From Rhodovulum sulfidophilum (GTDB lineage Bacteria; Pseudomonadota; Alphaproteobacteria; Rhodobacterales; Rhodobacteraceae): a stretch of DNA of 64,000 nt. The notes beneath the pieces are model-generated. The model did not search any database. It saw only the letters and a list, made by a program, of their open reading frames with translations, and had not been told where the DNA came from. This document shows, in pieces, positions 8,964-60,492 of this stretch. The DNA is taken from positions 53,420 through 117,419 of the forward strand of contig QFPW01000013.1 in NCBI GenBank assembly GCA_003241785.1. Reading direction: 5' to 3'. The position numbers and the translations under genes are program-made. Within the stretch, counting starts at the first letter, position 1. Every line of letters begins with the position of its first letter.

Positions 8964-8966
8964 GCG

Positions 8967-43246: not shown

Positions 43247-44095
43247 TCAGCGCCGGTCGAAGATCGCCTTGGCGACGTTGCCGACCGCCTCGACCTTCTC
43301 TTCGACGTCTTCCATCAGCAGGATGCGGCAGGGGCTCGCCTCCAGTCCGTCATAGCGCCACGGATAGGCGCCGATCACCCCGCGCTTGTTGAGGCAGAGC
43401 TCGATGTCGCCGCCGATGTTCTCCGCGTGGATCAGGCCGCGGTCGAACCCGTAGGCGTGGAAGGGGAAGATATTGTCGGTGATCTCCCGGCCCGAGAGGG
43501 AATGGGTGTAGTTGAAGTCGCCGAAGAATTCGGCGCAGCTCATGCCGACCTTCTCCTCGAACTTCTTCGCGAGGTCCGGGCGCATCTCGCGGATCGAGGT
43601 GTTCATCGCATGGTCGCCCGAGCCACAGTCGACGCCGAACCACTTGATCTTCCTGTCGAGCATCCATTCGAGCAGCTCGACCTTGCCGCCCGGGTGCATG
43701 CAGAAGTACTTCACCAGATCCTGCTCGGGCTGACCTTCCCAGTGGCGGTGCCAGCCGGTGTGCAGGATCAGGATGTCGCCGTCCTTCACCTCGACCGGCG
43801 CGCTCTCGATCATCTCCGGCGTGATGATCGCCCAGTCCTCCATATGCTCGGAGACGTCGACGACCGCGCCGGGACCGACCAGGAAATCCATCGCATAGGA
43901 GGCCATGTCGCCCATGCCGTCGGTGCCGTGCATCGCGCCGTCGATATGGGTGCCCGTGTGCAGCGCCACGTCGACCCGCTGCGCGACGATGCGCTTGGTC
44001 TGGAGGTTCTGGGCGTAGTACATCTTGTTGCCCGCGTAACCGACCCATCCCGGCGTGTGGATGTTCATCAGATGGGTCATGTCGGTGATTTTCAT
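43247..44095 (-). CDS. Putative cyclase / arylformamidase (KynB, isatin-hydrolase) family metal hydrolase
   Basis: The start MKITDMTHLMN follows GGAGAAG. The metal motif LHTGTHIDGAMHG (HxGTHxDxxxH) is present, plus GDILILHTGW and FGVDCGSGD. Confidence 0.75.
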   Translation of the reverse strand: MKITDMTHLMNIHTPGWVGYAGNKMYYAQNLQTKRIVAQRVDVALHTGTHIDGAMHGTDGMGDMASYAMDFLVGPGAVVDVSEHMEDWAIITPEMIESAPVEVKDGDILILHTGWHRHWEGQPEQDLVKYFCMHPGGKVELLEWMLDRKIKWFGVDCGSGDHAMNTSIREMRPDLAKKFEEKVGMSCAEFFGDFNYTHSLSGREITDNIFPFHAYGFDRGLIHAENIGGDIELCLNKRGVIGAYPWRYDGLEASPCRILLMEDVEEKVEAVGNVAKAIFDRR

Positions 44096-44167
44096 CGTCT
44101 TCTCCGTTCGGTTCGTTTCGGCCGCGCGGCTTCGCAAGCGCGCGCGGGCAGTCTCGGACCCGCGAGG

Positions 44168-45160
44168 TCAGGGCATGTAGCTCGCGGGAAGGTCGAGTTC
44201 GCGCAGCATCCGGCGGTAGAGGATCGCCGGGGCGTCGGGCAGCCGGATGTGCAGTTCGTCACGCAGATCGGTCGGGATCTGCTCCGGACGCTGGCTCTCC
44301 ACGATCTCGCGGTCCTGCTCCATGATCGTGTCGAAGCCGCCGGTGAAGTCGCTGTCGGGCCGGTCGAGGGAATGGTTGCGCGACACCATGACGTGGATGC
44401 GGGTGGTCGTCTCGTCGAGCGGGGCGGCGAGGAAGCTCAGCAGCGTCACGTCGCCCGAGGCGCTGCGGCCGGCGGCGTCCGACCAGGTGCGCCCGCCCTC
44501 CGGGTTCACGACGCTCTTGCGATCATGGACGATGAAGGGGAACTCGACCGTGTAGTCGCGCAGCAGGTGACCGTCGTCGTAGGCGTAGGTGAATCCATCG
44601 CCCGAGCGGGCCACCTCGTAGGGCTTGATCACCGGCCCGTCGGACAGCTCGGTGTAACCCTGGTGCACGAAGTTGAAATGCGAGAAATCCATCGCGTTCT
44701 CGAGCACCCGCCCGGCCGAGGTCTTCCAGTCCCAGCTCGCGACGTAGGTCATGCGGAAGCCGGGGTCCGCCGCCACCCCCGCGAGATAGTCGGGGAAGGG
44801 CGCGGGATCCGGATCGAGCGCGACCCAGACGAAGCCATAGGCCTCGCGCACCGGATAGGCGATCGCGCGCGCCTTCCTCGGCAGCGAGGCGCCTTCCGGC
44901 AAGGACGGGATCCGGGTGCAGGTCCCGTCCGCGCCGTATCGCCAGCCGTGATACGGGCAGACGATGCCGTCGCCCTCGACCCCGCCCCTGGAAAGCGCGG
45001 CGCCGCGATGGATGCACAGGTCCTTCATCACCGCCACGACGCCGCTCTCGCCGCGCCAGAGGACAAGCTGCTCGCCCAGCATGAAGCGGCGAAGCGGCGT
45101 GGTGGTCGCCTCCTCGCTTCGGGCGATGGGGTTCCAGAAGCGGCGCAGCGGTTCGAGCAT
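44168..45160 (-). CDS. Rieske [2Fe-2S] non-heme-iron oxygenase, VanA/phthalate-family type (alpha subunit only)
   Basis: The Rieske motif is CIHRGAALSRG...CPYHGWRY. The mononuclear-iron motif is ENAMDFSHFNFVH (NxxDxxHxxxxH). The ORF is 330 aa with a GGAG RBS. Confidence 0.85.
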   Translation of the reverse strand: MLEPLRRFWNPIARSEEATTTPLRRFMLGEQLVLWRGESGVVAVMKDLCIHRGAALSRGGVEGDGIVCPYHGWRYGADGTCTRIPSLPEGASLPRKARAIAYPVREAYGFVWVALDPDPAPFPDYLAGVAADPGFRMTYVASWDWKTSAGRVLENAMDFSHFNFVHQGYTELSDGPVIKPYEVARSGDGFTYAYDDGHLLRDYTVEFPFIVHDRKSVVNPEGGRTWSDAAGRSASGDVTLLSFLAAPLDETTTRIHVMVSRNHSLDRPDSDFTGGFDTIMEQDREIVESQRPEQIPTDLRDELHIRLPDAPAILYRRMLRELDLPASYMP

Positions 45161-45188: not shown

Positions 45189-45902
45189 TCACACCCCGAG
45201 GAAAAGCTCGCGGAAATTGTCCGCGGCGAGCAGGTCGCGGGCCGTCTCGCGCAGCCGGACGGTTCCGGTCGACATCACGATCACCTCGTCTGACAGACCG
45301 ATCACCTGCTGCGGGTTCTCCTCGACCACCCAGACGACGCCGACGCCGCCCCGATTGATCTCGGCGATGCCGCGCGCGACCTCGTCGGTCATCGAGGGGG
45401 AGAGGCCCGAGACGGGCTCGTCGAGGATGATGAGCTTCGGCTCGTTGATCAGCGCCGAGGCGATGGCGAGCATTTGCCGCTCGCCGCCGGAGAGCGAGCT
45501 GCCGTGCTGGGAGCGTCGCTCGACGAGCCGGGGGAAGCGCGCATAGGCCGCGTCGATCGCCCGCCGCCGCGCGGCGGCCGAGAGGAGCAGGCTGCTCATC
45601 TCGAGATTTTCGTGCACCGTCAGCGAACGGAAGACGTTGCGCGTCTGGGGCACGTAGCCGAGCCCCGCCGCGGCGATCTCCTGCGTCGGCCTGCCGGTGA
45701 TGTCCCGCCCGTCGAAGAGCACGCGCCCGCCCATGACCGTGCACTGGTTCATGATCGCGCGGGTGAGCGAGGTCTTGCCCGCGCCGTTCGGTCCGATGAC
45801 CGACAGCATCGTTCCCTGGGCGAGATCAAGCGAGACGTCGTGCAGCACCGGCAGCTTGCCGTAGCCGGCGACGAGGTTCTGGATCGACAGGATCGGTGTC
45901 AT
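45189..45902 (-). CDS. livF: Branched-chain amino acid-type ABC transporter ATP-binding protein (LivF-like)
   Basis: Motifs are Walker A GPNGAGKTS, signature LSGGERQM and Walker B IILDEPVSGL. Confidence 0.85.
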   Translation of the reverse strand: MTPILSIQNLVAGYGKLPVLHDVSLDLAQGTMLSVIGPNGAGKTSLTRAIMNQCTVMGGRVLFDGRDITGRPTQEIAAAGLGYVPQTRNVFRSLTVHENLEMSSLLLSAAARRRAIDAAYARFPRLVERRSQHGSSLSGGERQMLAIASALINEPKLIILDEPVSGLSPSMTDEVARGIAEINRGGVGVVWVVEENPQQVIGLSDEVIVMSTGTVRLRETARDLLAADNFRELFLGV

Positions 45903-45967
45903 GGGACGCTTTCGGGGGGGGCGGGTCCGGGAGGCCGACGGGCCTTCCGGACCCCGAGGGAGGGGGA

Positions 45968-47218
45968 TCAGTTCGTCGGATAGGCGCTCGAATCGACCGT
46001 CTTCACGGTCACCCAGTCGCCCTCGTCGGAGATCTCCAGCAGGCGCGTCGCCGGGATCGTCACATTGCCATGCGCGTCGAAGTCGACCGAACCCGAGGCG
46101 CCCTCGTAGTCGATCTCCTTGCCCTCGGCGAGCGCGGCCTTGCCGGCCGCGAAGGAGACGACCTTCTCGCCGCCCGGGCCCGCGACCTCGGTCAGATGCG
46201 CGTCGATCCCCGCGCCGCCAGCGTCCTTGGCCGCCTCCATCGCCAGCGCGGTCACCATGACCGCGTCATAGGTCTCGGCCTGGTAGAAGCCCGGCTCCGG
46301 CTTCTCGCCGAAGCGCTTTTCGTAGGCGTCCGAGAAGCGCGTCCAGCTTTCGGCGCCCTCGACCTGGGAGGAGACGGGATTGAGCGCGCCCTTGACGATG
46401 TCGACGCCGGCGGCGCTGACGAAATCCGGCGACTGCAGCTCGGCCGTCACCCAGTATTTCCAGTCGTAGCCACGCTGATAGGCCTGCTTGACGAAGGCGA
46501 CGCCGGCGGTCTGTCCGACGGCGAGGAAGACCATCGAGGGATCGGCGTCGGCGACGGCGCGCACCTCGGACTGGTAGTTGGTCTGGCCGGGCGCCAGCAC
46601 GACCTCCTTCACCACCTTGCCGCCGAACCGCTCGTAGGCGTCCTTGAAGGTCTTGGCGCCGGACTGGGTGCCTTCGAGGTTCTCGACGACGAGGACGATC
46701 TCCTTCTGGTCGAGCTCGTCGAGCAGCATCTTGGCATGGACCACGCCGAGGAAGCTGTCCGAGGCGTTGGTGCGGTAGATGTAGGTCCCGGTGCCGCCCA
46801 CCTCGTCGAGCGCCTCGGTCCCGGCCGAGGTCGAGATGACCGGGATCTCATGGTCCTTGGCGAAGGCGCGCAGCGCGAGGATCGGGTCGGATTCCGGGCC
46901 GATGATCGCGCTGACTCCCTCGACCGAGACGAGCTTGGTCGCGCCGCGGATCGCGCCGTCGACGGTCGAGGCATTGTCCTCGGCGACGAGCTCGACCGGG
47001 CGGCCCAGCACGCCGCCGTCGGCGTTGATCTCCTCGATCGCGAGCAGCGCGGCGTTGTTGAGCGCCGGCGCCCAGGGGCCCATGTCGCCGGTGAAGCCGA
47101 CGAGCAGGCCAAGCTTCACCGGGCCGTCCTCGGCCATCGCCGGCAGCGCGAGGGCGAGGGCGGACGCCGTCATCAGGGCGCGCGCCAGACGGGCGGTCAG
47201 CGGGGAGGCGAAGGTCAT
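45968..47218 (-). CDS. Leu/Ile/Val-binding-protein-family periplasmic substrate-binding protein
   Basis: The 416-aa ORF has an AAGGAGA RBS and a signal peptide ending ALPAMAED. Type I PBP blocks are VKLGLLVGFTGDMG and AIIGPESD. Confidence 0.85.
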   Translation of the reverse strand: MTFASPLTARLARALMTASALALALPAMAEDGPVKLGLLVGFTGDMGPWAPALNNAALLAIEEINADGGVLGRPVELVAEDNASTVDGAIRGATKLVSVEGVSAIIGPESDPILALRAFAKDHEIPVISTSAGTEALDEVGGTGTYIYRTNASDSFLGVVHAKMLLDELDQKEIVLVVENLEGTQSGAKTFKDAYERFGGKVVKEVVLAPGQTNYQSEVRAVADADPSMVFLAVGQTAGVAFVKQAYQRGYDWKYWVTAELQSPDFVSAAGVDIVKGALNPVSSQVEGAESWTRFSDAYEKRFGEKPEPGFYQAETYDAVMVTALAMEAAKDAGGAGIDAHLTEVAGPGGEKVVSFAAGKAALAEGKEIDYEGASGSVDFDAHGNVTIPATRLLEISDEGDWVTVKTVDSSAYPTN

Positions 47219-47256
47219 TGTCTCAGTCTCCTTTGATGGATGCCTGACGCGGCGGC

Positions 47257-48012
47257 TCAGGCGGGTTCTTGGGTCGCGGGGGCGCCGATGTAGAGGCGGA
47301 CGACCTCGGGGTTGTTGAGCACCGCGTCGGTCGGGCCGCGGGCGATGACGCGCCCGTCGGCCATGGCGACGCAGCTGTCGCAGACGTCGGCGATGAAGCG
47401 CAGGTTGTGGTCCACGAGCAGGAAGGTGACGCCCCGATCGCGGAGCGCGCGGATATGCCCGACCAGGTTCTCGAGCGCCGCCGGATTGACCCCGGCCGCC
47501 GGCTCGTCGAGCAGCAGGATTTTGGGCTCGGCCATCGAGGCGCGCGCGAATTCGAGCATCTTGAGCTCGGGCGCGGAGAGGTCCTGCACCCAGATATTGG
47601 CTCGCTCGGCGAGGCCGAATTCGGCCAGGACCTCGAGGCAGCGCGCGATCAGGCGCGCGTCGGGCCGCGCGCCGCCGAGCAGCCGCGTCCGCGTCATCCG
47701 CTCGTCGCGCGAGAAGACCAGCATGTTCTCGAGCACTGTCATGCGCGGAAAGCCGGTCGGCGTCTGGAAGGTGCGCACCATTCCGGCCGCCGCGATCCGC
47801 GCCGCGGGCCAGCCGTCCACGCGGTCGCCGCGGAAGGTGACCGCGCCGGAATCGGCGGGAGTGAAGCCGGTGATGACGTTGAAGAGCGAGGTCTTGCCGG
47901 CGCCGTTGGTGCCGATGAGGCCGACGATCGCGCCTTCCGGCACGTCGAGCGACACGCCGTCGACGGCGTGGATGCCGCCGTAGCTCAGCCGGATGTCACG
48001 CGCGCTGAGCAT
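47257..48012 (-). CDS. livG: Branched-chain amino acid-type ABC transporter ATP-binding protein (LivG-like)
   Basis: Motifs are Walker A GTNGAGKTS and Walker B LLLDEPAAGV. A LivG-type C-terminal tail is present. Confidence 0.85.
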   Translation of the reverse strand: MLSARDIRLSYGGIHAVDGVSLDVPEGAIVGLIGTNGAGKTSLFNVITGFTPADSGAVTFRGDRVDGWPAARIAAAGMVRTFQTPTGFPRMTVLENMLVFSRDERMTRTRLLGGARPDARLIARCLEVLAEFGLAERANIWVQDLSAPELKMLEFARASMAEPKILLLDEPAAGVNPAALENLVGHIRALRDRGVTFLLVDHNLRFIADVCDSCVAMADGRVIARGPTDAVLNNPEVVRLYIGAPATQEPA

Positions 48013-48973
48013 GGGCGATGCCTCCTCGGGGCTTGGCGGCGAGATCGATGACCTCTGGGCGCTCGGGGAAGATCCCGTCCGGGCGGAAGCGCAGGATCAG
48101 GATGAGCACGAGCCCGACGAGCGCGGTGCGGATCGAGGTCAGCGCCACGGCGAGCTCGCCCGAGACCTGCAGGAAGCGCAGCGAGTCGTGCAGCAGGATG
48201 AAGACGAAGGCCCCGAGCAGCGCGCCGCGCTGGTTGCCGATCCCGCCGATGATCAGGGCGGCCCAGATGAAGAAGGTGAAATCCGAGGTGAACTGGCCCG
48301 GGATGATGAGCGTGTTGTACCAGACGTAGACCATGCCGGCGACGCCGGTGATCGCGCCCGAGATCACGTAGAGGCGCTGGCTCGTCCGGCGCGGGTCGAT
48401 GCCCGCGGTGATGGCGAGCGCCTCGTTCTCGCGCAGCGCCTTGCAGGCGCGGCCGAAGGGCGAGAGCGCGAGATGGCGGGTCAGCGCCCAGGTGAGCGCG
48501 AGCCCGGTCAGCGCGAGCCCCAGCAGCACGTAGCCGTAGCTCGTCGCCGGGACCGCCGTCTTGAACGGCTGGTCGAGCCCGTAGATGCCCGCGACGCCGT
48601 TCGTCAGCCAGGCCGCGTTGGTGTAGAACTGCCGGATCACCTCGGCGAAGGCGAGGGTCACGATCAGGAAGTATTCCCGGCGGAGCCGCAGCGTCGGCAG
48701 GCTGATGAGCCAGGAGGCGAGGCCGGCGGCCGCGGCGGCGCCGATCGCGCCCACCCAGATCGGCAGGCCGAGGCCGAGGACATAGACCTGATAGGATTCC
48801 GCGGGCCGCGCCGTCAGCAGCACATAGGCGTAGGCGCCGATGCCGAAGGGGGCCACGATGCCGAGGTCCCAGAGCGGCCCGACGCCGGCCTCGAGGTTGA
48901 GCGCGAGGCAGACCATGCCGTAGATCGCCCCGAGGCTGGCGAGGCTGATCGCGAAGAGGATGAAGCCTTCCAT
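47996..48973 (-). CDS. livM: Branched-chain amino acid-type ABC transporter permease (LivM-like)
   Basis: The 325-aa polytopic protein overlaps the livG-like start by 17 nt. Confidence 0.85.
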   Translation of the reverse strand: MEGFILFAISLASLGAIYGMVCLALNLEAGVGPLWDLGIVAPFGIGAYAYVLLTARPAESYQVYVLGLGLPIWVGAIGAAAAAGLASWLISLPTLRLRREYFLIVTLAFAEVIRQFYTNAAWLTNGVAGIYGLDQPFKTAVPATSYGYVLLGLALTGLALTWALTRHLALSPFGRACKALRENEALAITAGIDPRRTSQRLYVISGAITGVAGMVYVWYNTLIIPGQFTSDFTFFIWAALIIGGIGNQRGALLGAFVFILLHDSLRFLQVSGELAVALTSIRTALVGLVLILILRFRPDGIFPERPEVIDLAAKPRGGIAHAQRA

Positions 48974-48985
48974 GGAAATCCGCCC

Positions 48986-49873
48986 TCAGTGCGCGCGCGC
49001 GGCGCCGCCGCCCCAGAGGGACTGGAGCCCCCGCGGACGGATGAGCAGCACGACGATGATGATGAGAAAGGCGAGAGCCGACCGGTAGGAGGGCTCGACG
49101 ACGAGCAGGCCGAGCTCGATGCCGAAGGCGAGCACGAAGGCCGCGAGCATCACGCCGTAAAGGCTGCCGAGCCCGCCGAGAACGGTCGTCGCGAGAATGA
49201 TGATGATCTGCTGCCAGCCCATCGCGAGATGCAGCGAGCCCATGATCCCGAGGAACACGCCCGCGAGCCCGCCGAGCGCGGAGGCGGCGAACCAGACGAG
49301 ATAGGAGCTGCGCAGCGGGTCGATGCCCCGCGCGCGCGCCAGCTCCTCGTTGTCGGAAACCGCGCGGATCGACTTGCCCATCGTGGTCAGCGTCATGAAG
49401 AGATGGATCGCCAGCGCGGAGAGCAGCGCGACCGCGACGATCGCGAGCTCGTAGGGCGTCATGAAGGGCTCGCCGAAGAGCTGGATCGCCCGGACCGGCG
49501 GCAGGTCGTAGGCGAGCATCCGCTTGCCGGCCGCCGCGCCCACGAGGCCGTAGATCACATAGGCGGCGCCGACCGAGGTGAAGAGCAGGACGAGCGTGCC
49601 GCGCGCCTTCACCGGGCGAAAGAGCACGCCGTAGAGCAGCGCCCCGACCGCCCCGGTCAGCAGCGCGGCGCCGAGCGCCGCGAGGACGATCGGCAGGCCC
49701 GCGTTCGAGAGCCAGAGGCCGAGATAGGCGCCGAGGAGCAGCATCTGCCCGTGCGCGATGTTGAGGAAGCCCTCCACCTTCACGATCAGCGCGAAGCCGA
49801 CCGAGGAAAGCAGGATCACGCTGCCGGTGATCAGGCCGAAGATGACGATGTCCAAAGTCCCTCCCTTTCGCAT
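48986..49873 (-). CDS. livH: Branched-chain amino acid-type ABC transporter permease (LivH-like)
   Basis: The LivH-like N-terminus reads DIVIFGLITGSVILLSSVGFALIVKVEGFLNIAHGQ. The start is ATG 49873 or TTG 49855 (AAGGGAGGG upstream). The ORF-track ATG at 49930 adds an Arg/Pro-rich extension. Confidence 0.8.
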   Translation of the reverse strand: MRKGGTLDIVIFGLITGSVILLSSVGFALIVKVEGFLNIAHGQMLLLGAYLGLWLSNAGLPIVLAALGAALLTGAVGALLYGVLFRPVKARGTLVLLFTSVGAAYVIYGLVGAAAGKRMLAYDLPPVRAIQLFGEPFMTPYELAIVAVALLSALAIHLFMTLTTMGKSIRAVSDNEELARARGIDPLRSSYLVWFAASALGGLAGVFLGIMGSLHLAMGWQQIIIILATTVLGGLGSLYGVMLAAFVLAFGIELGLLVVEPSYRSALAFLIIIVVLLIRPRGLQSLWGGGAARAH

Positions 49874-49971
49874 CGGCGAGACCGGCCGTCCCGCGACCCG
49901 GGGGTCGCGAGCGCGCGGCGGCTCAGTCATGAACGGGGCGGCGCGCCTTCGCGCGCCGGACCCTCCCGGGC

Positions 49972-50610
49972 TCAGGCGCTGCGGCGCAGCAGCGAGCGGA
50001 ACCAGCCTCTCAGCGACAGCCAGACAAGGCGCGCGCCGCTTATCGGCTTCGCCTTGGGCGCGACCGCCCCGGTGCTGGCCCGCGGCGAGACCCCGGTCTC
50101 GCAGACGTCGTAGATCCCCTTCCGCTCCGCGGCGAGGGGCGCCTCGGCCGCCGCGACGGGCGAGGCCGCCGGAAGCGCCTGTTCGACATTGGCGACGAAA
50201 TCGCCGATCAGCACCGAGGCGATCTCCTGGATGATGCCGGTGCGGCCGAACTGGGCGATCGTGCCCGAGAGCTGCACGTCGGCGTCGACGCTGACCTTGG
50301 TCCCGCCGTCCACCTCGGCGATGGCGCAGTCCATTGTCATCTTGCCTCGGGAGGCGCCCTTCTTGTCGACGCCCTTGCCCTCCATCTTCGCCCGGCGCGC
50401 CTCCTCGTCGTATTCGACGGTGGCGGCGCCCTCGAAGGCGGCCTGGAACGGACCGACCTTCATCGACATCTTGCCCGAGAGGCTGCCGTCCGGCTTGGTG
50501 CCGAGATATTCCGCCCCGGGCAGGCAGCTCGCGACGGCGGGAACGTCGTGGAAGAAGGCCCAGACCTGGTCGCTCGGGCGGTCGAGGGTGAATTCCTGGA
50601 TGATCTTCAT
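49972..50610 (-). CDS. coxG: CoxG / SRPBCC-family protein (carbon-monoxide-dehydrogenase subunit G-like) with C-terminal extension
   Basis: It starts MKIIQEFTLDRPSDQVWAFFHDVPAVASCLPGAEY and contains GPFQAAFEG, typical of CoxG. About 70 extra C-terminal residues end in a basic amphipathic tail. Confidence 0.75.
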   Translation of the reverse strand: MKIIQEFTLDRPSDQVWAFFHDVPAVASCLPGAEYLGTKPDGSLSGKMSMKVGPFQAAFEGAATVEYDEEARRAKMEGKGVDKKGASRGKMTMDCAIAEVDGGTKVSVDADVQLSGTIAQFGRTGIIQEIASVLIGDFVANVEQALPAASPVAAAEAPLAAERKGIYDVCETGVSPRASTGAVAPKAKPISGARLVWLSLRGWFRSLLRRSA

Positions 50611-50646: not shown

Positions 50647-51504
50647 CTAGAAGCTCTGCCCGGAGACGGTGATCCGATAGACATCGGTGCGGCGATCCTC
50701 GCGCGGGCGCACGAGGGGCGAGCGGACCCGAGCCGCGCGGATCTCGTCGAGCGAGAGCCGGGCCCGGATCGCGGTCGTCTCGTCCTCGCCGAGCGGCCCG
50801 GCGAGGCAGTCGCCGAAGGCGTCGGCGATCATCGAGGAGCCGAGGAAGCGGATCCCCTGGTCGCGCCCCGACTGGCTCGCGCAGACCATCGGCAGCTGGT
50901 CGAGATTGGCCTGCGCGAGCGCGCCGCGCACCTGGCCGATCCGGCCCATGGCATCCCGGGGCGTCTTGTCGAAGCCGCCGACCCAGGCGGTCGGGACGGC
51001 GAGGATGTCGGCGCCCGCCAGCGAGAGACCGCGCGCGACCTCGACGAACCGCAGGTCATAGCAGACGCAGAGGCCGATCCGGCCGAGATGGGTCTCGGCG
51101 AGGACGAGGCCGAGGTCCCCCGGAGCGAAGACCGCCTTCTCGCCGTCGAAGAGATGGAGCTTGCGATAGAGCGCCGGCGCGCGCCCCGGGGCCGCGAGCA
51201 GCGCGGCGTTGAAGAGCGCGCCCGACGGCCCCCTCTCGCAAAAGCCGCAGGCGACGACGACGCCGAGCTCCTCGGCGAGCGCGGTCAGCAGGGTCCGGGT
51301 CGGCCCGTCGGCGGGCTCCGCCGCGCCGGCGAGACCCTCGGGATCGAGCCCGTAGCCCGAGACCGCGAGTTCCGGCAGCACGATCAGGGCCGAGCCCGCC
51401 CGGGCCTCGGCCCGGATGAGTTCCGCGATCCGTTCCCGGTTCTCCACCGCCGCGTAGAGGCGCGCGCCGAACTGGACGGCGGAGACCTGGAACGGGGCGC
51501 TCAT
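50647..51504 (-). CDS. Carbon-nitrogen hydrolase (nitrilase superfamily) amidase
   Basis: The internal start is MSAPFQVSAVQF. Catalytic-triad contexts are VLPELAVSGY (Glu), YRKLHLF (Lys) and GLCVCYDLRF (Cys). ATGA overlap links it to the upstream cupin gene. Confidence 0.85.
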   Translation of the reverse strand: MSAPFQVSAVQFGARLYAAVENRERIAELIRAEARAGSALIVLPELAVSGYGLDPEGLAGAAEPADGPTRTLLTALAEELGVVVACGFCERGPSGALFNAALLAAPGRAPALYRKLHLFDGEKAVFAPGDLGLVLAETHLGRIGLCVCYDLRFVEVARGLSLAGADILAVPTAWVGGFDKTPRDAMGRIGQVRGALAQANLDQLPMVCASQSGRDQGIRFLGSSMIADAFGDCLAGPLGEDETTAIRARLSLDEIRAARVRSPLVRPREDRRTDVYRITVSGQSF

Positions 51505-51923
51505 CGCGGCAGCTCGCCGCAATAGGTCGCGGGCACGTCGCAATCCTCGGCCAGGGCGCCGACGCGGCGGAGCAGCGGCACGTCCGCCGGCGCGGGGCCG
51601 CCCACCGACACGACGCGCTCGCCCTGGTCGGCGCGGATCGCGTGCTTCACGCCGATCGGCACGTGCACGACGCACCCGGCGTGGAACGGCAAGCTCTCGC
51701 CATGCGTGTGATCGACCGCGGTGCCGCGCCCTTCGATGATGAAGATCGTATCTTCCGAAATCGGGTGGACATGGGGCACGTTCGCCTCGCCCGGCTCGAG
51801 CACCACGTAATTCACGTTGGCGTTCCAGGCGTCGGTGCCCGGCCAGACGACGAACCGCGCGTCCTTCGAGATCAGCGGCAGGCGCAGCGTCGGATGATCG
51901 CGGTGAAAGACCCGGATACTCAT
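51501..51923 (-). CDS. Cupin-domain protein (140 aa, intact metal motif)
   Basis: The internal start is MSIRVFHRD. The cupin motif 1 is PHVHPISEDTIFIIEGRG and motif 2 is GCVVHVPIGVKHAI. ATGA overlaps link it to both neighbours. Confidence 0.8.
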   Translation of the reverse strand: MSIRVFHRDHPTLRLPLISKDARFVVWPGTDAWNANVNYVVLEPGEANVPHVHPISEDTIFIIEGRGTAVDHTHGESLPFHAGCVVHVPIGVKHAIRADQGERVVSVGGPAPADVPLLRRVGALAEDCDVPATYCGELPR

Positions 51924-52321
51924 TCGGCGGCCTCCGTCGCGCTGATCTCGTAGAGCGCGGGATCGGCCGGGACCGTGCCGCCGATCGCCGTCATGCCCGC
52001 CTGCCCCGCCTCGAGCCGGTAGGCGTCCTCGGCGCCGATGTGGATCATCGACCCCTCGGCGAGGTCCGTCGCGGCGCCGTCGGCGAGATCGCGGATCAGC
52101 CCGGCTCCCGCCGCGATGTAGTAGACGCATTCGTAGCGGTGGCGCAGGTCGACGGTCCGCGCCCCCGAGCCGAGCTCGAGAATGTTGACGGTGCGATAGG
52201 TGGCGCCGTTCTCAGGGCCCAGGACCGCGTAGGCGGACCCCTCGCCGGTTACGATGGGCAGGGGTTTCCGCGTGACCGCGGTGTCAAGGACCTGTACCCT
52301 TCCTTGGTCGGGGCTCGGCAT
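51920..52321 (-). CDS. Cupin-like protein (133 aa, degenerate metal motif)
   Basis: Beta-rich cupin-like blocks are present (YAVLGPENGATYRTVNILEL; YECVYYIAAGAG; GSMIHIGAEDAYRLEAG). The first His-x-His is missing. It is the first gene of the long minus-strand array. Confidence 0.6.
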   Translation of the reverse strand: MPSPDQGRVQVLDTAVTRKPLPIVTGEGSAYAVLGPENGATYRTVNILELGSGARTVDLRHRYECVYYIAAGAGLIRDLADGAATDLAEGSMIHIGAEDAYRLEAGQAGMTAIGGTVPADPALYEISATEAAE

Positions 52322-52648: not shown

Positions 52649-53257
52649 TTGGCAAACCCTCAGCAGAACCCCGAACGCGAGCCAGACGCGCAACTCAACG
52701 AGAGCGCCTCGCGCGCTCTCATCGCGATCGGCCAGCGCGTCCGCGAATTGCGAAAGGCGCGCGGAATGACGCTGCAGCAGCTGGCGGACAAGAGCGGGAT
52801 CAGCGCCTCGATGCTCAGCCTCGCGGAGCGCGGCCTGGCCTCGCCCTCGATCGGCTCGCTTATCGTCGTGAGCGAGGCGCTCGGCACCAGCATGTCGAAG
52901 CTGCTCGAGACCAGCGACCATACCGACGATCTCGTCGTGCGCGCCTCCGACGTGCAGGTGGTCGTCACCCCGCATAACGTCGTGCGCCGGGTGCTGAAGG
53001 AGGACCGCAAGACCGGCGTCTCGATCGCGCTCAACGAATACGCGCCGAACACCGCCTCGAACGAGACGCCGCTGTCGCACGAGGGTTTCGAATACGGGCT
53101 CGTGCTCGAGGGCAGCATCGAGGTGGTGGTCGACGGCGTGAGCCACCTGCTGTCGGAAGGCGACCTGATCTCCTACGCCTCGCAGCGCCCGCACCGGATC
53201 CGCAATATCGGCGCGGGCGTCGCGCGCACCGTCTGGTTCAACACCGCGCGGCCGTGA
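52649..53257 (+). CDS. XRE-family HTH transcriptional regulator with C-terminal cupin sensor domain
   Basis: The HTH_3 block is IGQRVRELRKARGMTLQQLADKSGISASMLSLAERG. The cupin block is SHEGFEYGLVLEGSIEVVVDG...RPHRIRN. The start is TTG 52649, with no upstream in-frame ATG. Confidence 0.8.
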   Translation: MANPQQNPEREPDAQLNESASRALIAIGQRVRELRKARGMTLQQLADKSGISASMLSLAERGLASPSIGSLIVVSEALGTSMSKLLETSDHTDDLVVRASDVQVVVTPHNVVRRVLKEDRKTGVSIALNEYAPNTASNETPLSHEGFEYGLVLEGSIEVVVDGVSHLLSEGDLISYASQRPHRIRNIGAGVARTVWFNTARP

Positions 53258-53278: not shown

Positions 53279-55555
53279 TCAGCGGGCCGCGATCCAGCCG
53301 AAGAGCCGGTCAGGGCTGATCGGCAGGCGATCGACGGTGCCGGCGCGGCCGAGCGCGTCGTCGACCGCCGAGGCGATCGCCGCGCCGGCCGCAGTGATGC
53401 CGCCCTCCCCGGCGCCCTTGACGCCGAGCGGGTTGATCGGGCTCGGCGCGTCCTCGCGAAGCAGGACCTCGACCGCCGGCACCTCGAGCGCGGTCGGCAT
53501 CAGATAGTCGGCGAAGCTCGCCGCGAGCGGCTGGCCGGCGTCGTCGTAGACGAATTCCTCGTAGAGCGCGCCCCCGATCCCCTGCGCGACCGCGCCGACG
53601 ATCTGGCCCTCGACCAGCATCGGATTGATCGCGCGGCCGACGTCGAAGGCCACGACGTAGCGCTCGATCTCCACCCCCGCCGTTTCCGGGTCGATCCGCG
53701 CCTGGACGAAATGGATGCCATAGGGATAGGTCATGTGATCGGAGGCGAAAGTGCCCTCGGCGACCAGATCCTCCCCCTGCGCCGCCGCGATATCGGCGAG
53801 GCGCATCGCCTGCGCCCCTTCGGCGGCGCTGATCCGCCCGGCCTCGTAGCGCAGACCGGGGCGGTCGGCCTGCAGCAGCTCGGCGGCCCGGTCGAGCGCG
53901 CGCTCGATCAGCGCCTCGGCGGCGATCTTGACGGCGGATCCCGTCATCACCGTCACCCGCGTCGCGAAGGCGCCGAGACCTTTCTCGATCAGCGCGGTCT
54001 GGCCGTGGATCACCTCTATTCCCGCGACGTCGATGCCGAGGGTCGCGGCGCAGATCTGCGCCATCGCGGTCTCGACGCCCTGCCCGATCGAGGCGACGCC
54101 GGTGATGATCCGGATCGTGCCGTCGGCGCGGACGTGGACGCGCACGAGATCCTCGGGGCCGAGCCCGCTCTTCTCGACGAAATAGCCGATGCCGTAGCCG
54201 ACCGACTCCCCCGCCGCGCGCCGGCGCGCGAGTTCGGTCTCGAGCGCGGGCAGCTCGACATGCGCGGCGAGGCGGCGCAGCAGATCATGATACTTGCCGC
54301 TGTCATAGACGACCCGCGTGCCGAGGGCGTCGATCCCCCGATCGTGCGGCATCGCCGCCTCGGGCAGCAGGTTGCGGCGCCGGATCTCGAAGCGGTCGAC
54401 TCCGACGCGCGCCGCGATCGTGTCGATGAGCCGCTCGCGCGCGAAGGTGCTCTCGTAGCGGCCGGGCGCGCGATAGGTGCCCGAGGGCGTCTTGTTCGTC
54501 AGCCGGATATGGCCCGCCACGCGGTAGGCGGGCACGCGGTAGGGCCCGGGCAGCAGCGCGGCGGCGAGGTCCGAGACCGTGCCGCCATGCGTGCGCACAT
54601 AGGCGCCCTGATCAGTGAAGAATTCCGCGTCGAGCCCGAGGATCACCCCTTCGGCGTCGATCGCGGCGCGCAGCCGGTAGCGCTGGTCGCGGGAATGGTT
54701 CGCGGCGAGCAGGTGCTCGCGGCGGTCCTCGATCCATTTCACCGGCCGGCCGAAGCGCTTGCTCGCGAGGCAGACGAGCACGTCCTCGGGATAGAGCTCG
54801 CCCCGGATGCCGAAGCCTCCGCCGACATGGCCCTCGGAGAGCTGCACCCGCTCCGTCGGCGTCCGCAGCATGGCCGCGATCGCCATCCGGTTGTAGTGCG
54901 GCACCTTGGCCGCGCCGAACATGGTGATCGTATCCGAGGCGGCGTCATAGGTCGCGAGCGCGCCGCGTGTCTCGAGCGGCACACCGGTGTGGCGCCCGAC
55001 CGCGACCTCGAGCGAGACGACCTCCGCCGCCGCGGCGAAGGCGGCGTCGAGATCGCCGTAGGCCTTGCGCAGCACGCAAGGCTCACTCAGGAGCCCCGGC
55101 AGCGTCTCGGGCATGAAGGGCGAAGGTTCCTCGGCGCTGTCGAGCACCGCGTCGAGCTCATCGAGATCGGGAAAGATGAGCTCGGCCGCGTCCTCGGCGA
55201 CATAGGGATCGGTCGCGAAGACCACCGCCATCGGCTCGCCGACATAGCGCACGTAGTCCCGCGCGAGGCACCATTGCCGGTAGGGTCCGAGCCCTTGGAT
55301 CCGGGTCATCCGGAAGTCGATCTGCGGCAGGTCGGAGATGTCCTCCGACGTCCAGACCGCGATCACTCCCGGCAGCGCCCGCGCCTCCTCGGCGTCGATC
55401 TCGAGAATGCGCGCGAAGGCGACCGGCGAGCGCGCGATCCGCATGTGGATCTGGCCCTCGCGCATCTCGTCGGCGGCGAAGCGGCCGGCGCCGAGGAGCA
55501 GCGGCCGGTCCTCGATCCGGAGGATCGACCGGCCGATGGCATTGGTTTCCGTCAC
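53279..55555 (-). CDS. Xanthine-dehydrogenase-family molybdopterin-binding large subunit (copy 2, 758 aa)
   Basis: The GTG start at 55555 overlaps the 2Fe-2S subunit stop (GTGA) and gives VTETNAIGRSILRIEDRPLL. Family blocks are HVGGGFG, TYRAPGR and GVKGAGEGG (catalytic Glu region). Confidence 0.85.
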   Translation of the reverse strand: MTETNAIGRSILRIEDRPLLLGAGRFAADEMREGQIHMRIARSPVAFARILEIDAEEARALPGVIAVWTSEDISDLPQIDFRMTRIQGLGPYRQWCLARDYVRYVGEPMAVVFATDPYVAEDAAELIFPDLDELDAVLDSAEEPSPFMPETLPGLLSEPCVLRKAYGDLDAAFAAAAEVVSLEVAVGRHTGVPLETRGALATYDAASDTITMFGAAKVPHYNRMAIAAMLRTPTERVQLSEGHVGGGFGIRGELYPEDVLVCLASKRFGRPVKWIEDRREHLLAANHSRDQRYRLRAAIDAEGVILGLDAEFFTDQGAYVRTHGGTVSDLAAALLPGPYRVPAYRVAGHIRLTNKTPSGTYRAPGRYESTFARERLIDTIAARVGVDRFEIRRRNLLPEAAMPHDRGIDALGTRVVYDSGKYHDLLRRLAAHVELPALETELARRRAAGESVGYGIGYFVEKSGLGPEDLVRVHVRADGTIRIITGVASIGQGVETAMAQICAATLGIDVAGIEVIHGQTALIEKGLGAFATRVTVMTGSAVKIAAEALIERALDRAAELLQADRPGLRYEAGRISAAEGAQAMRLADIAAAQGEDLVAEGTFASDHMTYPYGIHFVQARIDPETAGVEIERYVVAFDVGRAINPMLVEGQIVGAVAQGIGGALYEEFVYDDAGQPLAASFADYLMPTALEVPAVEVLLREDAPSPINPLGVKGAGEGGITAAGAAIASAVDDALGRAGTVDRLPISPDRLFGWIAAR

Positions 55556-56037
55556 GCCGGCACGCCCCGCATCGCCGCCGCGGCCTGGCGCACCGCCTTG
55601 AGGATGTTCTGATAGCCGGTGCAGCGACAGAGGTTGGAGGACAGGACCTCGCGGATCTCCGCGTCGCTCATGTCGGGGCTCTCGCGCAGCGCGCCCGCCG
55701 CCAGCATGAGGAATCCGGGCGTGCAGAAGCCGCATTGCAGGCCGTGGTTCTCCCAGAACGCCCGCTGGAGCGGGTGGAGGGTCTCGCCGTCGGCGAGGCC
55801 CTCCACCGTCTCGATCTCCATCCCCTCGGCCTGGACCGCGAAGGTCAGGCAGGCGCGGACCGGCTTGCCGTCGAGAAGCACCGTGCAGGCGCCGCAGACG
55901 CCGTGCTCGCAGCCGACATGCGTGCCGGTGAGCCCGCAGTCCTCGCGCAGCGCGTCGGCGAGGTTGCGCCGCGGCTCGACCTCGACCGGGTGGGCCGCGC
56001 CATTTACCCGCAGGGTGAGCTTCGTCTTTTCCGCCAT
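55552..56037 (-). CDS. (2Fe-2S)-binding small subunit of xanthine-dehydrogenase-family enzyme
   Basis: The 161-aa ORF has CEHGVCGACTV (plant-type cluster) and CGFCTPG...CRCTGY (second cluster). Confidence 0.9.
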   Translation of the reverse strand: MAEKTKLTLRVNGAAHPVEVEPRRNLADALREDCGLTGTHVGCEHGVCGACTVLLDGKPVRACLTFAVQAEGMEIETVEGLADGETLHPLQRAFWENHGLQCGFCTPGFLMLAAGALRESPDMSDAEIREVLSSNLCRCTGYQNILKAVRQAAAAMRGVPA

Positions 56038-56047
56038 GGCAGATCCC

Positions 56048-58360
56048 CTAGTTGGCCCCGGCGGCGCGGATCGCCGCCCGGATCCGGTCCGGCGTGGCCG
56101 GCATGGTGTTGAGCACGGCGCCGAGCGGCGCCAGCGCGTCGTTGATCGCCCCGATGATCGCCGCCGGCGCGCCGATCGTTCCGCCCTCGCCGACGCCCTT
56201 GGCCTTGGTCACGGTCTCGGGCGAGATGGTCTCCATATGGACGATCTCGATATCCGGGATCTCCATGGCCGTCGGCGGCAGGTAGTCGGCGAGCGAGGTG
56301 GTGAGCAGCGTGCCGAAATCGTCGTAGATCAGCTCCTCGTAGAGCGCGTTCGCCACGCCCTGCGCGACGCCGCCGGCGATCTGGCCGTCGACGATCATCG
56401 GATTGATGAGCAGGCCCGCGTCCTCGACCACGAGGAAGCGTGTGATCTCGACCCCGCCGGTCTCGACGTCGACCTCGACCTCGCAGACATGCGTCGCGTT
56501 CGAGAAGGTGCCCTCGGGGTCGTAGAAGGCCTGCTCCCTCAGCCCGGCCGTCAGCCCCTCGAATTCGTGGCTGCGGTGATGGATGGCGCGCGCCGCCTCG
56601 GCGATCCGGACCGAGCGGTTGGTACCCTCGGCGATCGCGAGATCATCGGCGAGCCGGATCGTCGCCGCGTCGACCTCGAGCATCCGGCCCGCGACCCGCC
56701 GGAGCTTGTCCGCGAGCTTGTCGGCGGCGAGCTGGCTCGCGCCGCCCGAGATCACCATCGAGCGGCTCGCGAAGGTGCCCCAGCCATAGGGCGTCGCGTC
56801 GGTGTCGCCGCTGATGACGCGGATCCGGTCCGGCGAGACGCCGAGCCGGTCGGCGACGAGCTGCGCGAGCGCGGTCTTCAGCCCCTGGCCGTGCGGCGAG
56901 GCGCCGATCCGCAGCGTCACCTGGCCCGAGGGGCCCATGTCGCAATCGACGGTCTCGTAGCCCGGGACGATGCCCATCTTGCGCGCGGCATAGGCGGGCG
57001 TCCCGTAGCCGGTGCGTTCGGAGAAGACCGCGAGGCCGAGGCCGAGATAACGCCCCTCGGCCCGCGCCGCCGCCTGGCGCGCGCGAAAGCCGGGAATATC
57101 GGCGCGCTCCGCCGCCGCCTCCATCGCCTCGAGGTAGGATCCCTCGTCGTACACGAGCCCGGTGGGCGAGCGATGCGGGAAGGACCTGATGAGGTTGCGC
57201 CGGCGGATCTCGACCGGATCGAGGCCGAGCCGGGCCGCGGCGCGGTCCATCAGCTGCTCCATGGTCAGCGTCAGCATCGGCCGCGCCACGCCGCGATAGG
57301 GCGCCATCATCGAGGTGTTGGTCGTGACGCCGCGCGAGCGCACGCCGTATTCGGCGAAATCATACGGGCCGGGCAGCTCGGCGAAGGCCATCAGGGGTTC
57401 GACCCCGCAGGTCACCGGATAGCAGGAGAAGGCGCCGACGTTGGAGCGCAGATCCGCCTCGACGCCGAGCAGCCGGCCTTCGGCGTCGAAGGCGCCGCGC
57501 ACGCTGAACTTCTGGTCGCGCGAATGCGACGAGGCGAGGAAGTTCTCGCGCCGGTCCTCGATCCAGGCGAGCCGGCGCCGGAGCCGGAAAGCCGCCCAGA
57601 CGAGCGCGACATATTCCGGGAAGAGCGACATCTTCTGCCCGAAGCCGCCGCCCACGTCGGGCGCGACCACGCGCAGGTCGGCCTCGTCGATCCCGAGCAC
57701 GTCGGCGAGGCCGGTGCGCAGCATATGCGGCATCTGCACCGAGGCATGGAGCGTTACCCGGCCGGTGACCCGGTCGTAGTCGGCCACCCCGCCCCGGCCT
57801 TCGAGCGGCATGGCGGACTGGCGCCCGGACCTGAGCTCGAGCGCGACCACCGCGGCGGCGCCGGCGAAGGCGGCGTCGAGACCCGGTGTGCGCAGCGCGC
57901 CTTCGACCATGACATTGCCCGGCGCCTCGGGATGCACGTCGCGCGCGTCCTCGGCCAGCGCGGTGTCGAGCGAGGTGATCGCATCCTCGGCCTCGATATC
58001 GACGAAGACCTGCTCGGCGAGATCCTCGGCCTCGGCCTCGCTCGACGCGACCACCATCGCGACCGCCTGGCCCGCGAAGACCACGCGGTCCCGCGCGAGC
58101 ACCGGATGCGGCACCCGGCGGTAGTCGGGCCGGTGCAGCACCGACTGGATAGGCCCGACCCCGGCCGCGTCGAGATCCTTCGCGGTGAAGACGATTCCCT
58201 TCTCGGGCAGCTCGATCGCGGTGATCGCGCCGGCCGCCTCGGGGCTGCGCACGAACTTGACCGACAGGGCGCCCGCGCTGAGATCCGAGACATAGCGTCC
58301 CTCGCCCCGGAGCAGCGTCGGATCCTCGAGCCTCGGAAGCGTGCGGCCGATCCAGCTCAT
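56048..58360 (-). CDS. Xanthine-dehydrogenase-family molybdopterin-binding large subunit (copy 1, 770 aa)
   Basis: The internal start MSWIGRTLPRLEDPTLLRGEGRYV overlaps the FAD-subunit stop (ATGA). Family blocks are DVGGGFGQK, APYRGVARP and KAKGVGEGG. Confidence 0.85.
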   Translation of the reverse strand: MSWIGRTLPRLEDPTLLRGEGRYVSDLSAGALSVKFVRSPEAAGAITAIELPEKGIVFTAKDLDAAGVGPIQSVLHRPDYRRVPHPVLARDRVVFAGQAVAMVVASSEAEAEDLAEQVFVDIEAEDAITSLDTALAEDARDVHPEAPGNVMVEGALRTPGLDAAFAGAAAVVALELRSGRQSAMPLEGRGGVADYDRVTGRVTLHASVQMPHMLRTGLADVLGIDEADLRVVAPDVGGGFGQKMSLFPEYVALVWAAFRLRRRLAWIEDRRENFLASSHSRDQKFSVRGAFDAEGRLLGVEADLRSNVGAFSCYPVTCGVEPLMAFAELPGPYDFAEYGVRSRGVTTNTSMMAPYRGVARPMLTLTMEQLMDRAAARLGLDPVEIRRRNLIRSFPHRSPTGLVYDEGSYLEAMEAAAERADIPGFRARQAAARAEGRYLGLGLAVFSERTGYGTPAYAARKMGIVPGYETVDCDMGPSGQVTLRIGASPHGQGLKTALAQLVADRLGVSPDRIRVISGDTDATPYGWGTFASRSMVISGGASQLAADKLADKLRRVAGRMLEVDAATIRLADDLAIAEGTNRSVRIAEAARAIHHRSHEFEGLTAGLREQAFYDPEGTFSNATHVCEVEVDVETGGVEITRFLVVEDAGLLINPMIVDGQIAGGVAQGVANALYEELIYDDFGTLLTTSLADYLPPTAMEIPDIEIVHMETISPETVTKAKGVGEGGTIGAPAAIIGAINDALAPLGAVLNTMPATPDRIRAAIRAAGAN

Positions 58361-59235
58361 GCCACGGCCGCCGCGCGCGGTTCGGCCGCGGCGGCCGCGA
58401 GCGCGCGGCGCGTCACCGTCGCCGAGAGCTCGCGGCGGTAGGCCGCCGAGCCGTGGATGTCGGACAGGGGATCGACCGTGTCGCGGACCCGGGCCGCCGC
58501 CTCGGTGAAGACCGTCGCGCTCGCCGGCTGGCCGACCAGCGCCGCCTCGACCTCGCGCATCCGGAGCGCGGTGCCCGCGAGACCGCCGAGGCCCAGCCGC
58601 GCCTCGCGGATCACGCCGCCCTCGACGCGCAGCGCGGCGAGCGCCATGGCGAGCGCGAAATCGCCCTTGCGGCGTGAGAATTCGTAGAAGCCGGTTCGCC
58701 AGCCCGCGGCGAGGCGCGGCAGGCGGACGCGGACGAGCAGCTCGTCGGGCTGGACCGCCGTGACGAAGGTGCCGCGGAAGAACTCCGCCGCCGGGACGCG
58801 GCGGGCGCCCGAGGGCCCGTGGATCTCCATCTCGGCGCCGAGCGTGGTCGCCACGAGACACCATTCCGACGCGGGATCCGCGTGGCTCAGCGATCCGCCG
58901 AAGGTGCCGCGCTGCCGGATCGGATAATGCGCGATGTGGCGCACGACATCGGCGAGCATGTGGCCGAGCGGATCGTCGCTGACCGGCGCGTGAAACGCCG
59001 CGTGTCGCGTCACCGCGCCGATCACGAGCGCGCCGGGCTCGGCGGCGAGGCCCTGGATCTCCGCGACGCCATTGATGTCGATCAACACCTCCGGACGGGC
59101 CAACCGGAAATTCATCGACGGGACGAGGCTCTGCCCCCCCGCGAGGATCTTGCCGTCCAGCCCGTGCTCGGCCAGCGCGGCGCGCGCTTCCGCGAGATCG
59201 GCGACTTTAAGGTACTTGAAGACTGCTGGCTTCAT
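58357..59235 (-). CDS. FAD-binding (CoxM-like) medium subunit of xanthine-dehydrogenase-family enzyme
   Basis: The 292-aa ORF reads MKPAVFKYLKVADLAEARAAL...ILAGGQSLVPSMNFRLARP...RGTFGGSL, with a CO-dehydrogenase flavoprotein C-terminal domain. Confidence 0.85.
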   Translation of the reverse strand: MKPAVFKYLKVADLAEARAALAEHGLDGKILAGGQSLVPSMNFRLARPEVLIDINGVAEIQGLAAEPGALVIGAVTRHAAFHAPVSDDPLGHMLADVVRHIAHYPIRQRGTFGGSLSHADPASEWCLVATTLGAEMEIHGPSGARRVPAAEFFRGTFVTAVQPDELLVRVRLPRLAAGWRTGFYEFSRRKGDFALAMALAALRVEGGVIREARLGLGGLAGTALRMREVEAALVGQPASATVFTEAAARVRDTVDPLSDIHGSAAYRRELSATVTRRALAAAAAEPRAAAVA

Positions 59236-60419: not shown

Positions 60420-60473
60420 AAAGGCGATGGCGTTTCATGCGGCAATATCGCTTTTTTTCCGCTTTGGCCATTG

Positions 60474-60492
60474 CTATGCGCTTGAAGCATAG
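60474..60492. promoter_or_regulatory. Candidate LysR box (T-N11-A): CTATGC-N7-GCATAG
   Basis: This perfect 6-bp inverted repeat contains ATGC-N7-GCAT. It lies in the LysR / RraA-like divergent intergenic region, 33 nt upstream of the 60525 start. Confidence 0.45.

Follow-up and report, generated by a model that had tools for sequence, protein, structure and literature searches.

The window analysed here is a stretch of 64,000 nucleotides from Rhodovulum sulfidophilum (contig QFPW01000013.1, positions 53,420 to 117,419) with a GC content of about 70%. It carries a minus-strand operon of four genes for a molybdenum hydroxylase that belongs to the xanthine oxidase (XO) family, in which one medium subunit (M) and one small subunit (S) are encoded together with two large subunits (L1 and L2), a gene ratio of 2 L : 1 S : 1 M. 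M (58357..59235, 292 amino acids (aa)) binds flavin adenine dinucleotide (FAD) and has the Pfam domains FAD_binding_5 (E-value 5e-40) and CO_deh_flav_C (2e-23). It is followed by L1 (56048..58360, 770 aa), a molybdenum cofactor (Moco) subunit of the Qor/NdhL type, by S (55552..56037, 161 aa) with Fer2 and Fer2_2 domains, and by L2 (53279..55555, 758 aa), a Moco subunit of the KdhL type that starts with GTG. The types of L1 and L2 were assigned by Pfam, PDB and clade comparison.

Both L1 and L2 possess, over the full length of each, the hammerhead domain Ald_Xan_dh_C (Pfam: PF01315) and the two Moco-binding domains MoCoBD_1 (Pfam: PF02738) and MoCoBD_2 (Pfam: PF20256), as well as the catalytic glutamate and the YR active-site loop. 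The translation of S contains two [2Fe-2S] motifs, CEHGVCGAC...C and CGFCTPG...CRCTGY, and together with the two domains of M these are the features by which the XO family is recognised. Read directly from their junctions, the four genes are translationally coupled: the stop codon of M and the start codon of L1 overlap in ATGA, the gap of 10 nt between L1 and S includes AGGGGA, and the stop codon of S overlaps the start codon of L2 in GTGA. The GTG start of L2 is backed by homology to Kdh, Qor and the orthologues from residue 5-7 onwards. In the public record L2 has 728 aa and is about 30 residues too short; with the GTG at 55555 as start codon, the conserved N-terminus IGRSILRIEDRPLL is recovered.

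A preliminary description of this stretch, made from the letters alone, had given the gene order as M-L-S-L, and the four minus-strand open reading frames (ORFs), their Pfam domains and their junctions agree with it. It had also counted a single S and a single M, and indeed no further M or S gene was found within the 64-kb window. The motifs it quoted are all present in the translations (GGGFGQK, PYRGVAR and GVGEGG in L1; GGGFGIRGE, TYRAPGR and GAGEGG in L2), and the AYxCSFR signature that it had reported missing occurs in neither L1 nor L2.

Properties of the two catalytic subunits

L1 and L2 share 37% identity. Each of them aligns with both halves of the split NdhL/NdhM of Eubacterium barkeri (PDB: 3hrd_A plus 3hrd_B), hence they are two complete catalytic subunits, and the contrast with the split E. 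barkeri subunit drawn in the preliminary description is borne out. The best PDB match of L1 is the quinoline 2-oxidoreductase Qor (1t3q_B, 495 bits), and that of L2 is the ketone dehydrogenase Kdh of A. nicotinovorans (7dqx_A, 621 bits). Compared with the proteins of the nicotine plasmid pAO1, taken from NZ_CP089294, L1 is most similar to NdhL (39.8% identity) and L2 to KdhL (43.4%). In a neighbour-joining tree of 157 L sequences, which carries no support values, all L1 orthologues form one clade beside NdhL and all L2 orthologues another beside KdhL. The L2 clade is the nearest to KdhL, with which L2 has the YRAPGRYE loop in common but is only 43% identical.

The two clades also differ within the active site. 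The GGGFG region reads GGGFGQK in the L1 clade and GGGFG[I/V]RGE in the L2 clade, and the active-site loop is PYRGV[S/A]RP in the former and TYRAPGR[Y/F]E in the latter, with the YR invariant in both. The corresponding loops are AYRGVG in Qor and AYRAPG in Kdh (PMC8305194). The loop of L1 thus corresponds to that of Qor and the loop of L2 to that of Kdh, so that the difference between the two loops, already pointed out in the preliminary description, parallels the one between Qor/Ndh-type and Kdh-type enzymes. The likeness of the L1 loop to that of form-II CoxL, which had been proposed there as well, does exist but is less informative than the match to Qor.

The catalytic glutamate (Qor E743, Kdh E748) is found in 51 of 51 L1-clade and 81 of 81 L2-clade sequences. 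At the position of Q224 in Qor (Q240 in the CO dehydrogenase, CODH), usually regarded as a conserved glutamine adjoining the Mo=O group, all 51 sequences of the L1 clade have Gln and all 82 of the L2 clade have Lys (residue 217 in the L2 of the window). Gln at this position is therefore not universal in the XO family, as L2 has Lys and the active KdhL has His. The Lys of the L2 clade may be a sign of enzymes whose substrates are rings that carry a hydroxyl group already (pyridones).

The ratio of nonsynonymous to synonymous substitution rates (dN/dS), calculated for eight close species pairs, is 0.04-0.20 for L1 and 0.05-0.18 for L2, and similar for M and S. To judge from these sequences, L1 and L2 are both intact and under purifying selection. 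The impression that both look functional is consistent with their full-length domains and invariant motifs, and the reading of one copy as a decaying paralogue fails because the dN/dS values are as low as those of M and S, the catalytic motifs are conserved and each L has a clade of its own.

Gene order in related genomes

To survey the gene order, we searched with L2 as the seed and kept one genome per species, which gave 337 relatives; the best 80 loci were examined with 10-kb flanks and are referred to by L numbers where needed. The order M-L1-S-L2 is found in 46 complete loci and in two more that are cut by contig ends, together 48 of the 80. Four further loci keep L1 next to L2, in the order S-L1-L2 or L1-L2, and encode M, alone or together with S, elsewhere, so L1 is immediately upstream of L2 in 52 of the 80 loci and in three gene orders. 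Since M-L1-S-L2 recurs in 48 related loci, it is not a chance arrangement. The carriers are Rhodobacterales, many Hyphomicrobiales (Bradyrhizobium, Xanthobacter, Methylobacterium, Bosea, Bauldia, Lichenihabitans), Acetobacteraceae, a few Betaproteobacteria and many Acidimicrobiia, and dozens of bacterial genera share the layout. M orthologues in these loci are 45-69% identical to the M of the window.

The preliminary description had called two full-length L genes on one S and one M unusual. We found no paper on M-L-S-L or on the sharing of one S and one M by two L subunits, in a search that did not cover most subscription journals, so that this absence is not proof. The arrangement is not rare in genomes, however, and clusters with two L-like genes are already in print (see below).

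Over the 46 complete loci, the pairwise distances of L1 and of L2 correlate with r = 0.935 and their mean divergence is equal, which argues that the pair is inherited as a unit. Besides the paired loci, there are ten with a plain M-S-L2 order. One, L018, has the accessory set described below in full but no L1, and two others (L024 and L029) are nested near M-L1-S-L2 relatives. Close relatives of L2 thus form ordinary M-S-L2 sets, so L2, M and S probably make a working enzyme without L1, which can be lost or relocated and might lie elsewhere in these genomes. In six loci (L032, L037, L039, L045, L064 and L067) we found a tandem M-S-L2-M-S-Lx, in which Lx belongs to a third clade with about 37-41% identity to L1; it is the unshared counterpart of the two-hydroxylase theme.

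Each L has at least 120 close homologues (at least 67% identity for L2 and at least 69% for L1), and all those listed are named generically or as 'CO dehydrogenase large subunit'. Different neighbours surround the L1-L2 and S-L1-L2 variants L035 (4701-7498) and L044 (4274-6725): TctA, a PdxA-like dehydrogenase, an SDR protein and an Amidohydro_2 decarboxylase in L035, and a 384-aa cupin and an LVIVD-repeat protein in L044. These neighbours hint at carboxylated heterocycles as substrates in those lineages.

Companion genes and a proposed pathway

Downstream of the operon, past a plus-strand regulator, lies a second minus-strand operon. The regulator (52649..53257, plus strand) combines HTH_3 and Cupin_2 domains in a PuuR-like architecture, and 27 of the 46 complete M-L1-S-L2 loci have a homologue of it beside the cluster. 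The second operon begins with two small cupins, cup1 (51920..52321, 133 aa) and cup2 (51501..51923, 140 aa), and ATGA overlaps join cup1 to cup2 and cup2 to the CN hydrolase that follows. No Pfam model matches cup1 above threshold and no PDB sequence matches it; its AlphaFold2 (AF2) model (pLDDT 77) resembles monocupin structures, and His61, Glu64 and His94 are conserved. A function for cup1 was sought from the structure, but AF2 and Foldseek gave generic monocupins only. The translation of cup2 contains the canonical His/Glu metal motifs PHVHPISEDTIFIIEG and GCVVHVPIGVKH, and it has a weak PDB match to quercetin 2,3-dioxygenase (E-value 3e-5). The gene is easily overlooked among the overlapping high-GC ORFs. 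cup1 occurs in 37 loci, each time beside cup2, and across these loci the cup2 homologues are 60-87% identical and better conserved than cup1. Of the 48 M-L1-S-L2 loci, 36 contain the cupin pair, against one of the 32 others (Fisher p = 5e-11).

The CN hydrolase (50647..51504, 285 aa; Pfam CN_hydrolase, E-value 9e-38) reaches the cut-off of no NCBIfam model and is found in 19 of the 46 complete loci. Its longest ORF (50647-51675, minus strand) would start with the GTG at 51675, encode 342 aa and overlap cup2; the true start is most likely the ATG at 51504 (MSAPFQVSAV...), which overlaps the cup2 stop codon. Next come a CoxG/SRPBCC protein (49972..50610, 212 aa; Pfam COXG, 4e-16), present in 24 of the 46 loci, and a HAAT-type ATP-binding cassette (ABC) transporter (45189..49930) with two permeases, an ATPase, a Peripla_BP_6 binding protein and a second ATPase, as annotated by Pfam. 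The Rieske/VanA-like oxygenase (44168..45160, 330 aa; Pfam Rieske and VanA_C) occurs in only five of the 46 loci. It is followed by a metal hydrolase of the 'cyclase' family (Pfam: PF04199, 2e-27; 43247..44137), probably of 283 aa from MKITDM..., with the motif HTGTHIDGAMH and with homologues of 53-86% identity in 23 of the 46 loci. An identity as isatin hydrolase or kynurenine formamidase was considered and rejected, as all PDB matches are weak (E-values 1e-6 to 1e-2). The last gene encodes a carboxymuconolactone-decarboxylase (CMD) family protein (42634..43173; Pfam CMD, 5e-10), which follows the cyclase in seven loci and in the Rhodococcus ruber cluster discussed below.

The cyclase, CoxG, the regulator and, less often, the CN hydrolase are thus co-conserved with M-L1-S-L2, and in Acidimicrobiia cup1, cup2, the CN hydrolase, M, L1, S and L2 form one co-directional block. 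Close homologues of the HAAT transporter were retrieved in only about seven loci (Rhodobacterales, some Hyphomicrobiales and Micropepsaceae). In Bradyrhizobium-type and related alphaproteobacterial loci it is replaced by a Bmp/PnrA-family ABC transporter of the nucleoside/nucleobase type (L010 13177-14274, with equivalents in L009, L011, L014-L016, L021, L022 and L081), and an NMT1-like binding protein is encoded as well in the loci of Xanthobacter and Methylobacterium, so the type of transporter is not conserved along with the enzymes. The transporters were looked at for a hint of the substrate and gave no consistent clue, as the binding protein in the window is generic HAAT-type and other lineages have Bmp/PnrA or NMT1 types. 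On the other side of the operon, upstream of M, a LysR regulator, an RraA-like aldolase (NF004850, above cut-off) and a family-5 ABC transporter (59484-63732) are without counterparts in all of the related loci; they seem to form a neighbouring unit of their own and are not counted as part of the system.

We propose that the operon provides two distinct molybdenum-hydroxylase activities on one electron-transfer set, for successive hydroxylations of one ring that are followed by ring opening and deamidation, and we judge the chances of this reading to be about even. L1 and L2 would each dock onto the single S and the single M, which would take electrons from the molybdenum site. L1 would hydroxylate an N-heteroaromatic ring next to the nitrogen, and L2 would carry out a second hydroxylation on the pyridone-like product of L1. 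The cup1/cup2 pair would then process the dihydroxylated ring, possibly as an O2-dependent ring-cleaving enzyme, the formamidase/lactamase-type PF04199 hydrolase may act in the step after the cupins, and the CN hydrolase may release ammonia as an amidase. CoxG is a possible membrane or assembly partner and the HTH-cupin protein a likely local regulator. A dioxygenase-deformylase-amidase logic is known from TDO/KynB and from NicX/NicD/NicF, and the proposed order of cupin, hydrolase and amidase mirrors it. The idea of successive hydroxylations gains support from the pAO1 comparison, because the best matches of L1 and L2 there are the enzymes of the first (NdhL) and the second step (KdhL), respectively. 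With its companions, the cluster probably forms the entry to an undescribed route by which a nitrogen-containing ring compound is broken down.

Several observations weigh against this proposal. The reaction order is drawn by analogy, from identities to NdhL and KdhL of only about 40% and 43%, and the curated NCBIfam models of CODH, glyceraldehyde dehydrogenase, XDH and 4-HBCR all stay well below their cut-offs. The count of one M and one S covers the 64-kb window, and there may be other copies in the genome. As the survey was seeded with L2, it cannot give the frequency of L1 without L2. For the lower pathway, 12 M-L1-S-L2 loci have no cupins within 10 kb, the structure and sequence matches of the cupins indicate a generic fold only, and the cyclase of the window, at 24% identity, is no orthologue of the ring-opening enzyme known as pAO1/HpoH. 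The accessory sets are moreover lineage-dependent: Bradyrhizobium-type loci lack the CN hydrolase, and many Acidimicrobiia loci lack the cyclase.

The two L subunits might also be obligate partners instead of alternatives, so that the butterfly-shaped (LMS)2 of the family would become (L1-S-M)(L2-S-M). In Kdh, Qor and CODH, two heterotrimers are linked via L to form a dimer (PMC8305194), and a heterodimer would suit the position of the S gene between the two L genes, the direct succession of L1 and L2 in 52 of the 80 loci and in three gene orders, and their equal evolutionary rates (r = 0.935). On the other hand, the close L2 relatives in L018, L024 and L029 have no adjacent L1, so L2 can probably homodimerise. 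We regard the heterodimer as possible but rather doubtful; it is compatible with sequential chemistry but departs from the preliminary description, which had pictured the two L subunits as alternatives. A bolder form of the same arrangement, offered tentatively and with more doubt than trust, is an asymmetric 'two-headed' hydroxylase that diverged from an ancestral homodimer. Its two different active sites would hydroxylate one N-heterocycle in succession inside a single complex, possibly with hand-over of the intermediate, and the complex would stand at the head of a widespread undescribed pathway (cupin pair, PF04199 hydrolase, CN hydrolase) for a common natural heterocycle.

We consider it unlikely that L1 and L2 are used in parallel, as independent hydroxylases for two substrates that, for example, feed the same lower pathway and have S, M and their regulation in common for economy. 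The ordinary M-S-L2 loci within the L2 clade, among them L018 with its full accessory set and no L1, would fit such a use, as would the L2-type genes beside complete second sets in M-S-L2-M-S-Lx. Yet the nearest characterised relatives are a first-step and second-step pair, the adjacency of L1 and L2 is kept even where M and/or S are encoded elsewhere, and the divergences of the two are tightly correlated.

A form-II CO dehydrogenase or an aldehyde dehydrogenase, with no role in heterocycle breakdown, is very improbable. It is suggested by homologues named 'carbon-monoxide dehydrogenase large subunit' in their source records, by the coxG gene in the cluster, and by the top NCBIfam matches, which are glyceraldehyde dehydrogenase (NF041018/19/20) and CODH group 5 (NF040766). 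The scores stay far under the cut-offs of these models, with 568 vs 790 bits for L1, 594 vs 950 bits for L2, 226 vs 350 bits for M and 223 vs 290 bits for S. The form-I CoxL model (TIGR02416, cut-off 991 bits) is missed as well, as the two L subunits score 453 and 375 bits, and their loops PYRGVAR and TYRAPGR lack the Cu ligand of AYxCSFR. In addition, the nearest solved structures are Qor and Kdh, and the genes conserved alongside encode amidohydrolases and cupins instead of coxDEF. That one L is non-catalytic, be it a paralogue in decay, a scaffold or a carrier of cofactor, is scarcely credible. The Lys of L2 at the conserved Gln position near the Mo=O group may suggest it, but this Lys is invariant (82/82) where the active KdhL has His. 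Neither clade varies in the catalytic Glu, GGGFG or the YR loop, the dN/dS values of L1 and L2 alike lie at about 0.04-0.2, and the two proteins are complete in length and retain the three domains.

The operon points to an uncharacterised enzyme architecture and pathway that are built of familiar parts and common in genomes. If the proposal is true, an S/M module can be shared between two catalytic subunits, or the family homodimer can become a bifunctional heterodimer. The components are all from known families, and the advance would be in architecture and pathway, not in chemistry. Soil and aquatic Alphaproteobacteria (Bradyrhizobium, Methylobacterium, Xanthobacter, Bosea, Rhodobacterales) commonly carry the cluster, as do Acidimicrobiia, and its current names are generic or, like 'CO dehydrogenase large subunit', misleading. 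Identifying the substrate would give a function to a widespread gene set and probably reveal a new route of N-heterocycle mineralisation.

Comparison with known systems

In all XO-family hydroxylases cited for comparison, a single catalytic subunit is paired with Fe-S and flavin subunits of its own. In the literature, no gene cluster matching the one described here was found for the homarine, trigonelline, oxidative pyrimidine and isonicotinate pathways. The closest analogy to the proposal is plasmid pAO1 of Paenarthrobacter nicotinovorans, where Ndh and Kdh are two XO-family hydroxylases that act successively on one pyridine ring and catalyse its first and second hydroxylation (PMC8305194). 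Each of the two has its own M and S there (ndhAB, kdhAB), in contrast to the one M and one S for two L subunits in the window. In the pAO1 record (NZ_CP089294, L084, locus 6604-10392), ndhA/B/C are labelled '2,6-dihydroxypyridine 3-hydroxylase subunit', which is probably an annotation error, since in the literature they are the nicotine dehydrogenase subunits.

The kdhL operon of pAO1 has the order kdhL-Dabb-cyclase-dhpH-SRPBCC-CN hydrolase, so the cyclase, SRPBCC and CN hydrolase families are common to both systems, with identities of 24% for the cyclase, 35% for SRPBCC/CoxG and 30% for the CN hydrolase. The pAO1 cyclase has been proposed to open trihydroxypyridine to alpha-ketoglutaramate, and the CN hydrolase is an omega-amidase (PMC6214936). 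A ring opening of 2,3,6-trihydroxypyridine of the HpoH/pAO1 type was considered for the window because of this gene set in pAO1; orthology was rejected, as the cyclase of the window is just 24% and its R. ruber homologue just 22% identical to the pAO1 cyclase. The two cyclases belong to different subfamilies and, by sequence comparison, are related by family-level analogy only. The FAD monooxygenase and the side-chain hydrolase of the nicotine route are not encoded at the cluster, which makes nicotine itself an unlikely substrate. Nor are the nicotine-specific DHPON hydrolase and DhpH among the genes around the operon.

Qor of Pseudomonas putida 86 (QorMSL, PDB: 1T3Q) shares with L1 the equivalent of Gln224, the catalytic Glu and the YRGV loop, but has a single L per M/S set, and the L1 loop starts with Pro where Qor has Ala. 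The nicotinate dehydrogenase of E. barkeri (NdhF/S/L/M, PDB: 3HRD) is like the enzyme of the window in having four genes, two of them with Moco domains. There, however, one L is split into two halves, whereas each L of the window spans both.

Two clusters with two L-like genes are in print, in B. niacini (PMC4256190) and, as ndrB, in Sphingomonas melonis TY (PMC5239795); both were compared by their descriptions only. As proposed here, B. niacini carries out two consecutive Mo-dependent hydroxylations of one pyridine ring, but it is a Firmicute and has a nicE/nicF-type lower pathway, unlike the window. The ndrB1B2B3B4 cluster of S. melonis TY has one Fe-S gene and two genes like hydroxylase large subunits and is required for nicotine degradation (PMC5239795). 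Its gene order differs from that of the window, and no enzyme activity was obtained.

HpdA1A2A3A4 of Ensifer adhaerens HP1 is a 3-hydroxypyridine dehydrogenase that needs a separate SRPBCC/CoxG-like protein (bioRxiv 10.1101/2020.01.08.898148). Like the enzyme of the window, it is a four-component XO-family pyridine hydroxylase of an alphaproteobacterium. Its fourth component is the SRPBCC protein and not a second L, and it performs one hydroxylation only, which feeds a maleamate lower pathway.

The lower part of the proposed pathway has a counterpart of its own on a plasmid of Rhodococcus ruber (NZ_CP145321, L083, 10133-16615), where a Rieske oxygenase, a VanB reductase, a bicupin, a CN hydrolase, a cyclase, CMD and a Zn dehydrogenase are encoded in a row. 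Compared with the window, the cup1-like half of the bicupin is 34% identical, the CN hydrolase 44%, the cyclase 60%, CMD 30% and the Rieske protein 38%. No Mo hydroxylase lies alongside, and moaA is found about 4 kb away. Since bicupin, CN hydrolase, cyclase and CMD stand behind Rieske/VanB oxygenases in R. ruber, the lower module is portable and can be fed by different hydroxylating systems.

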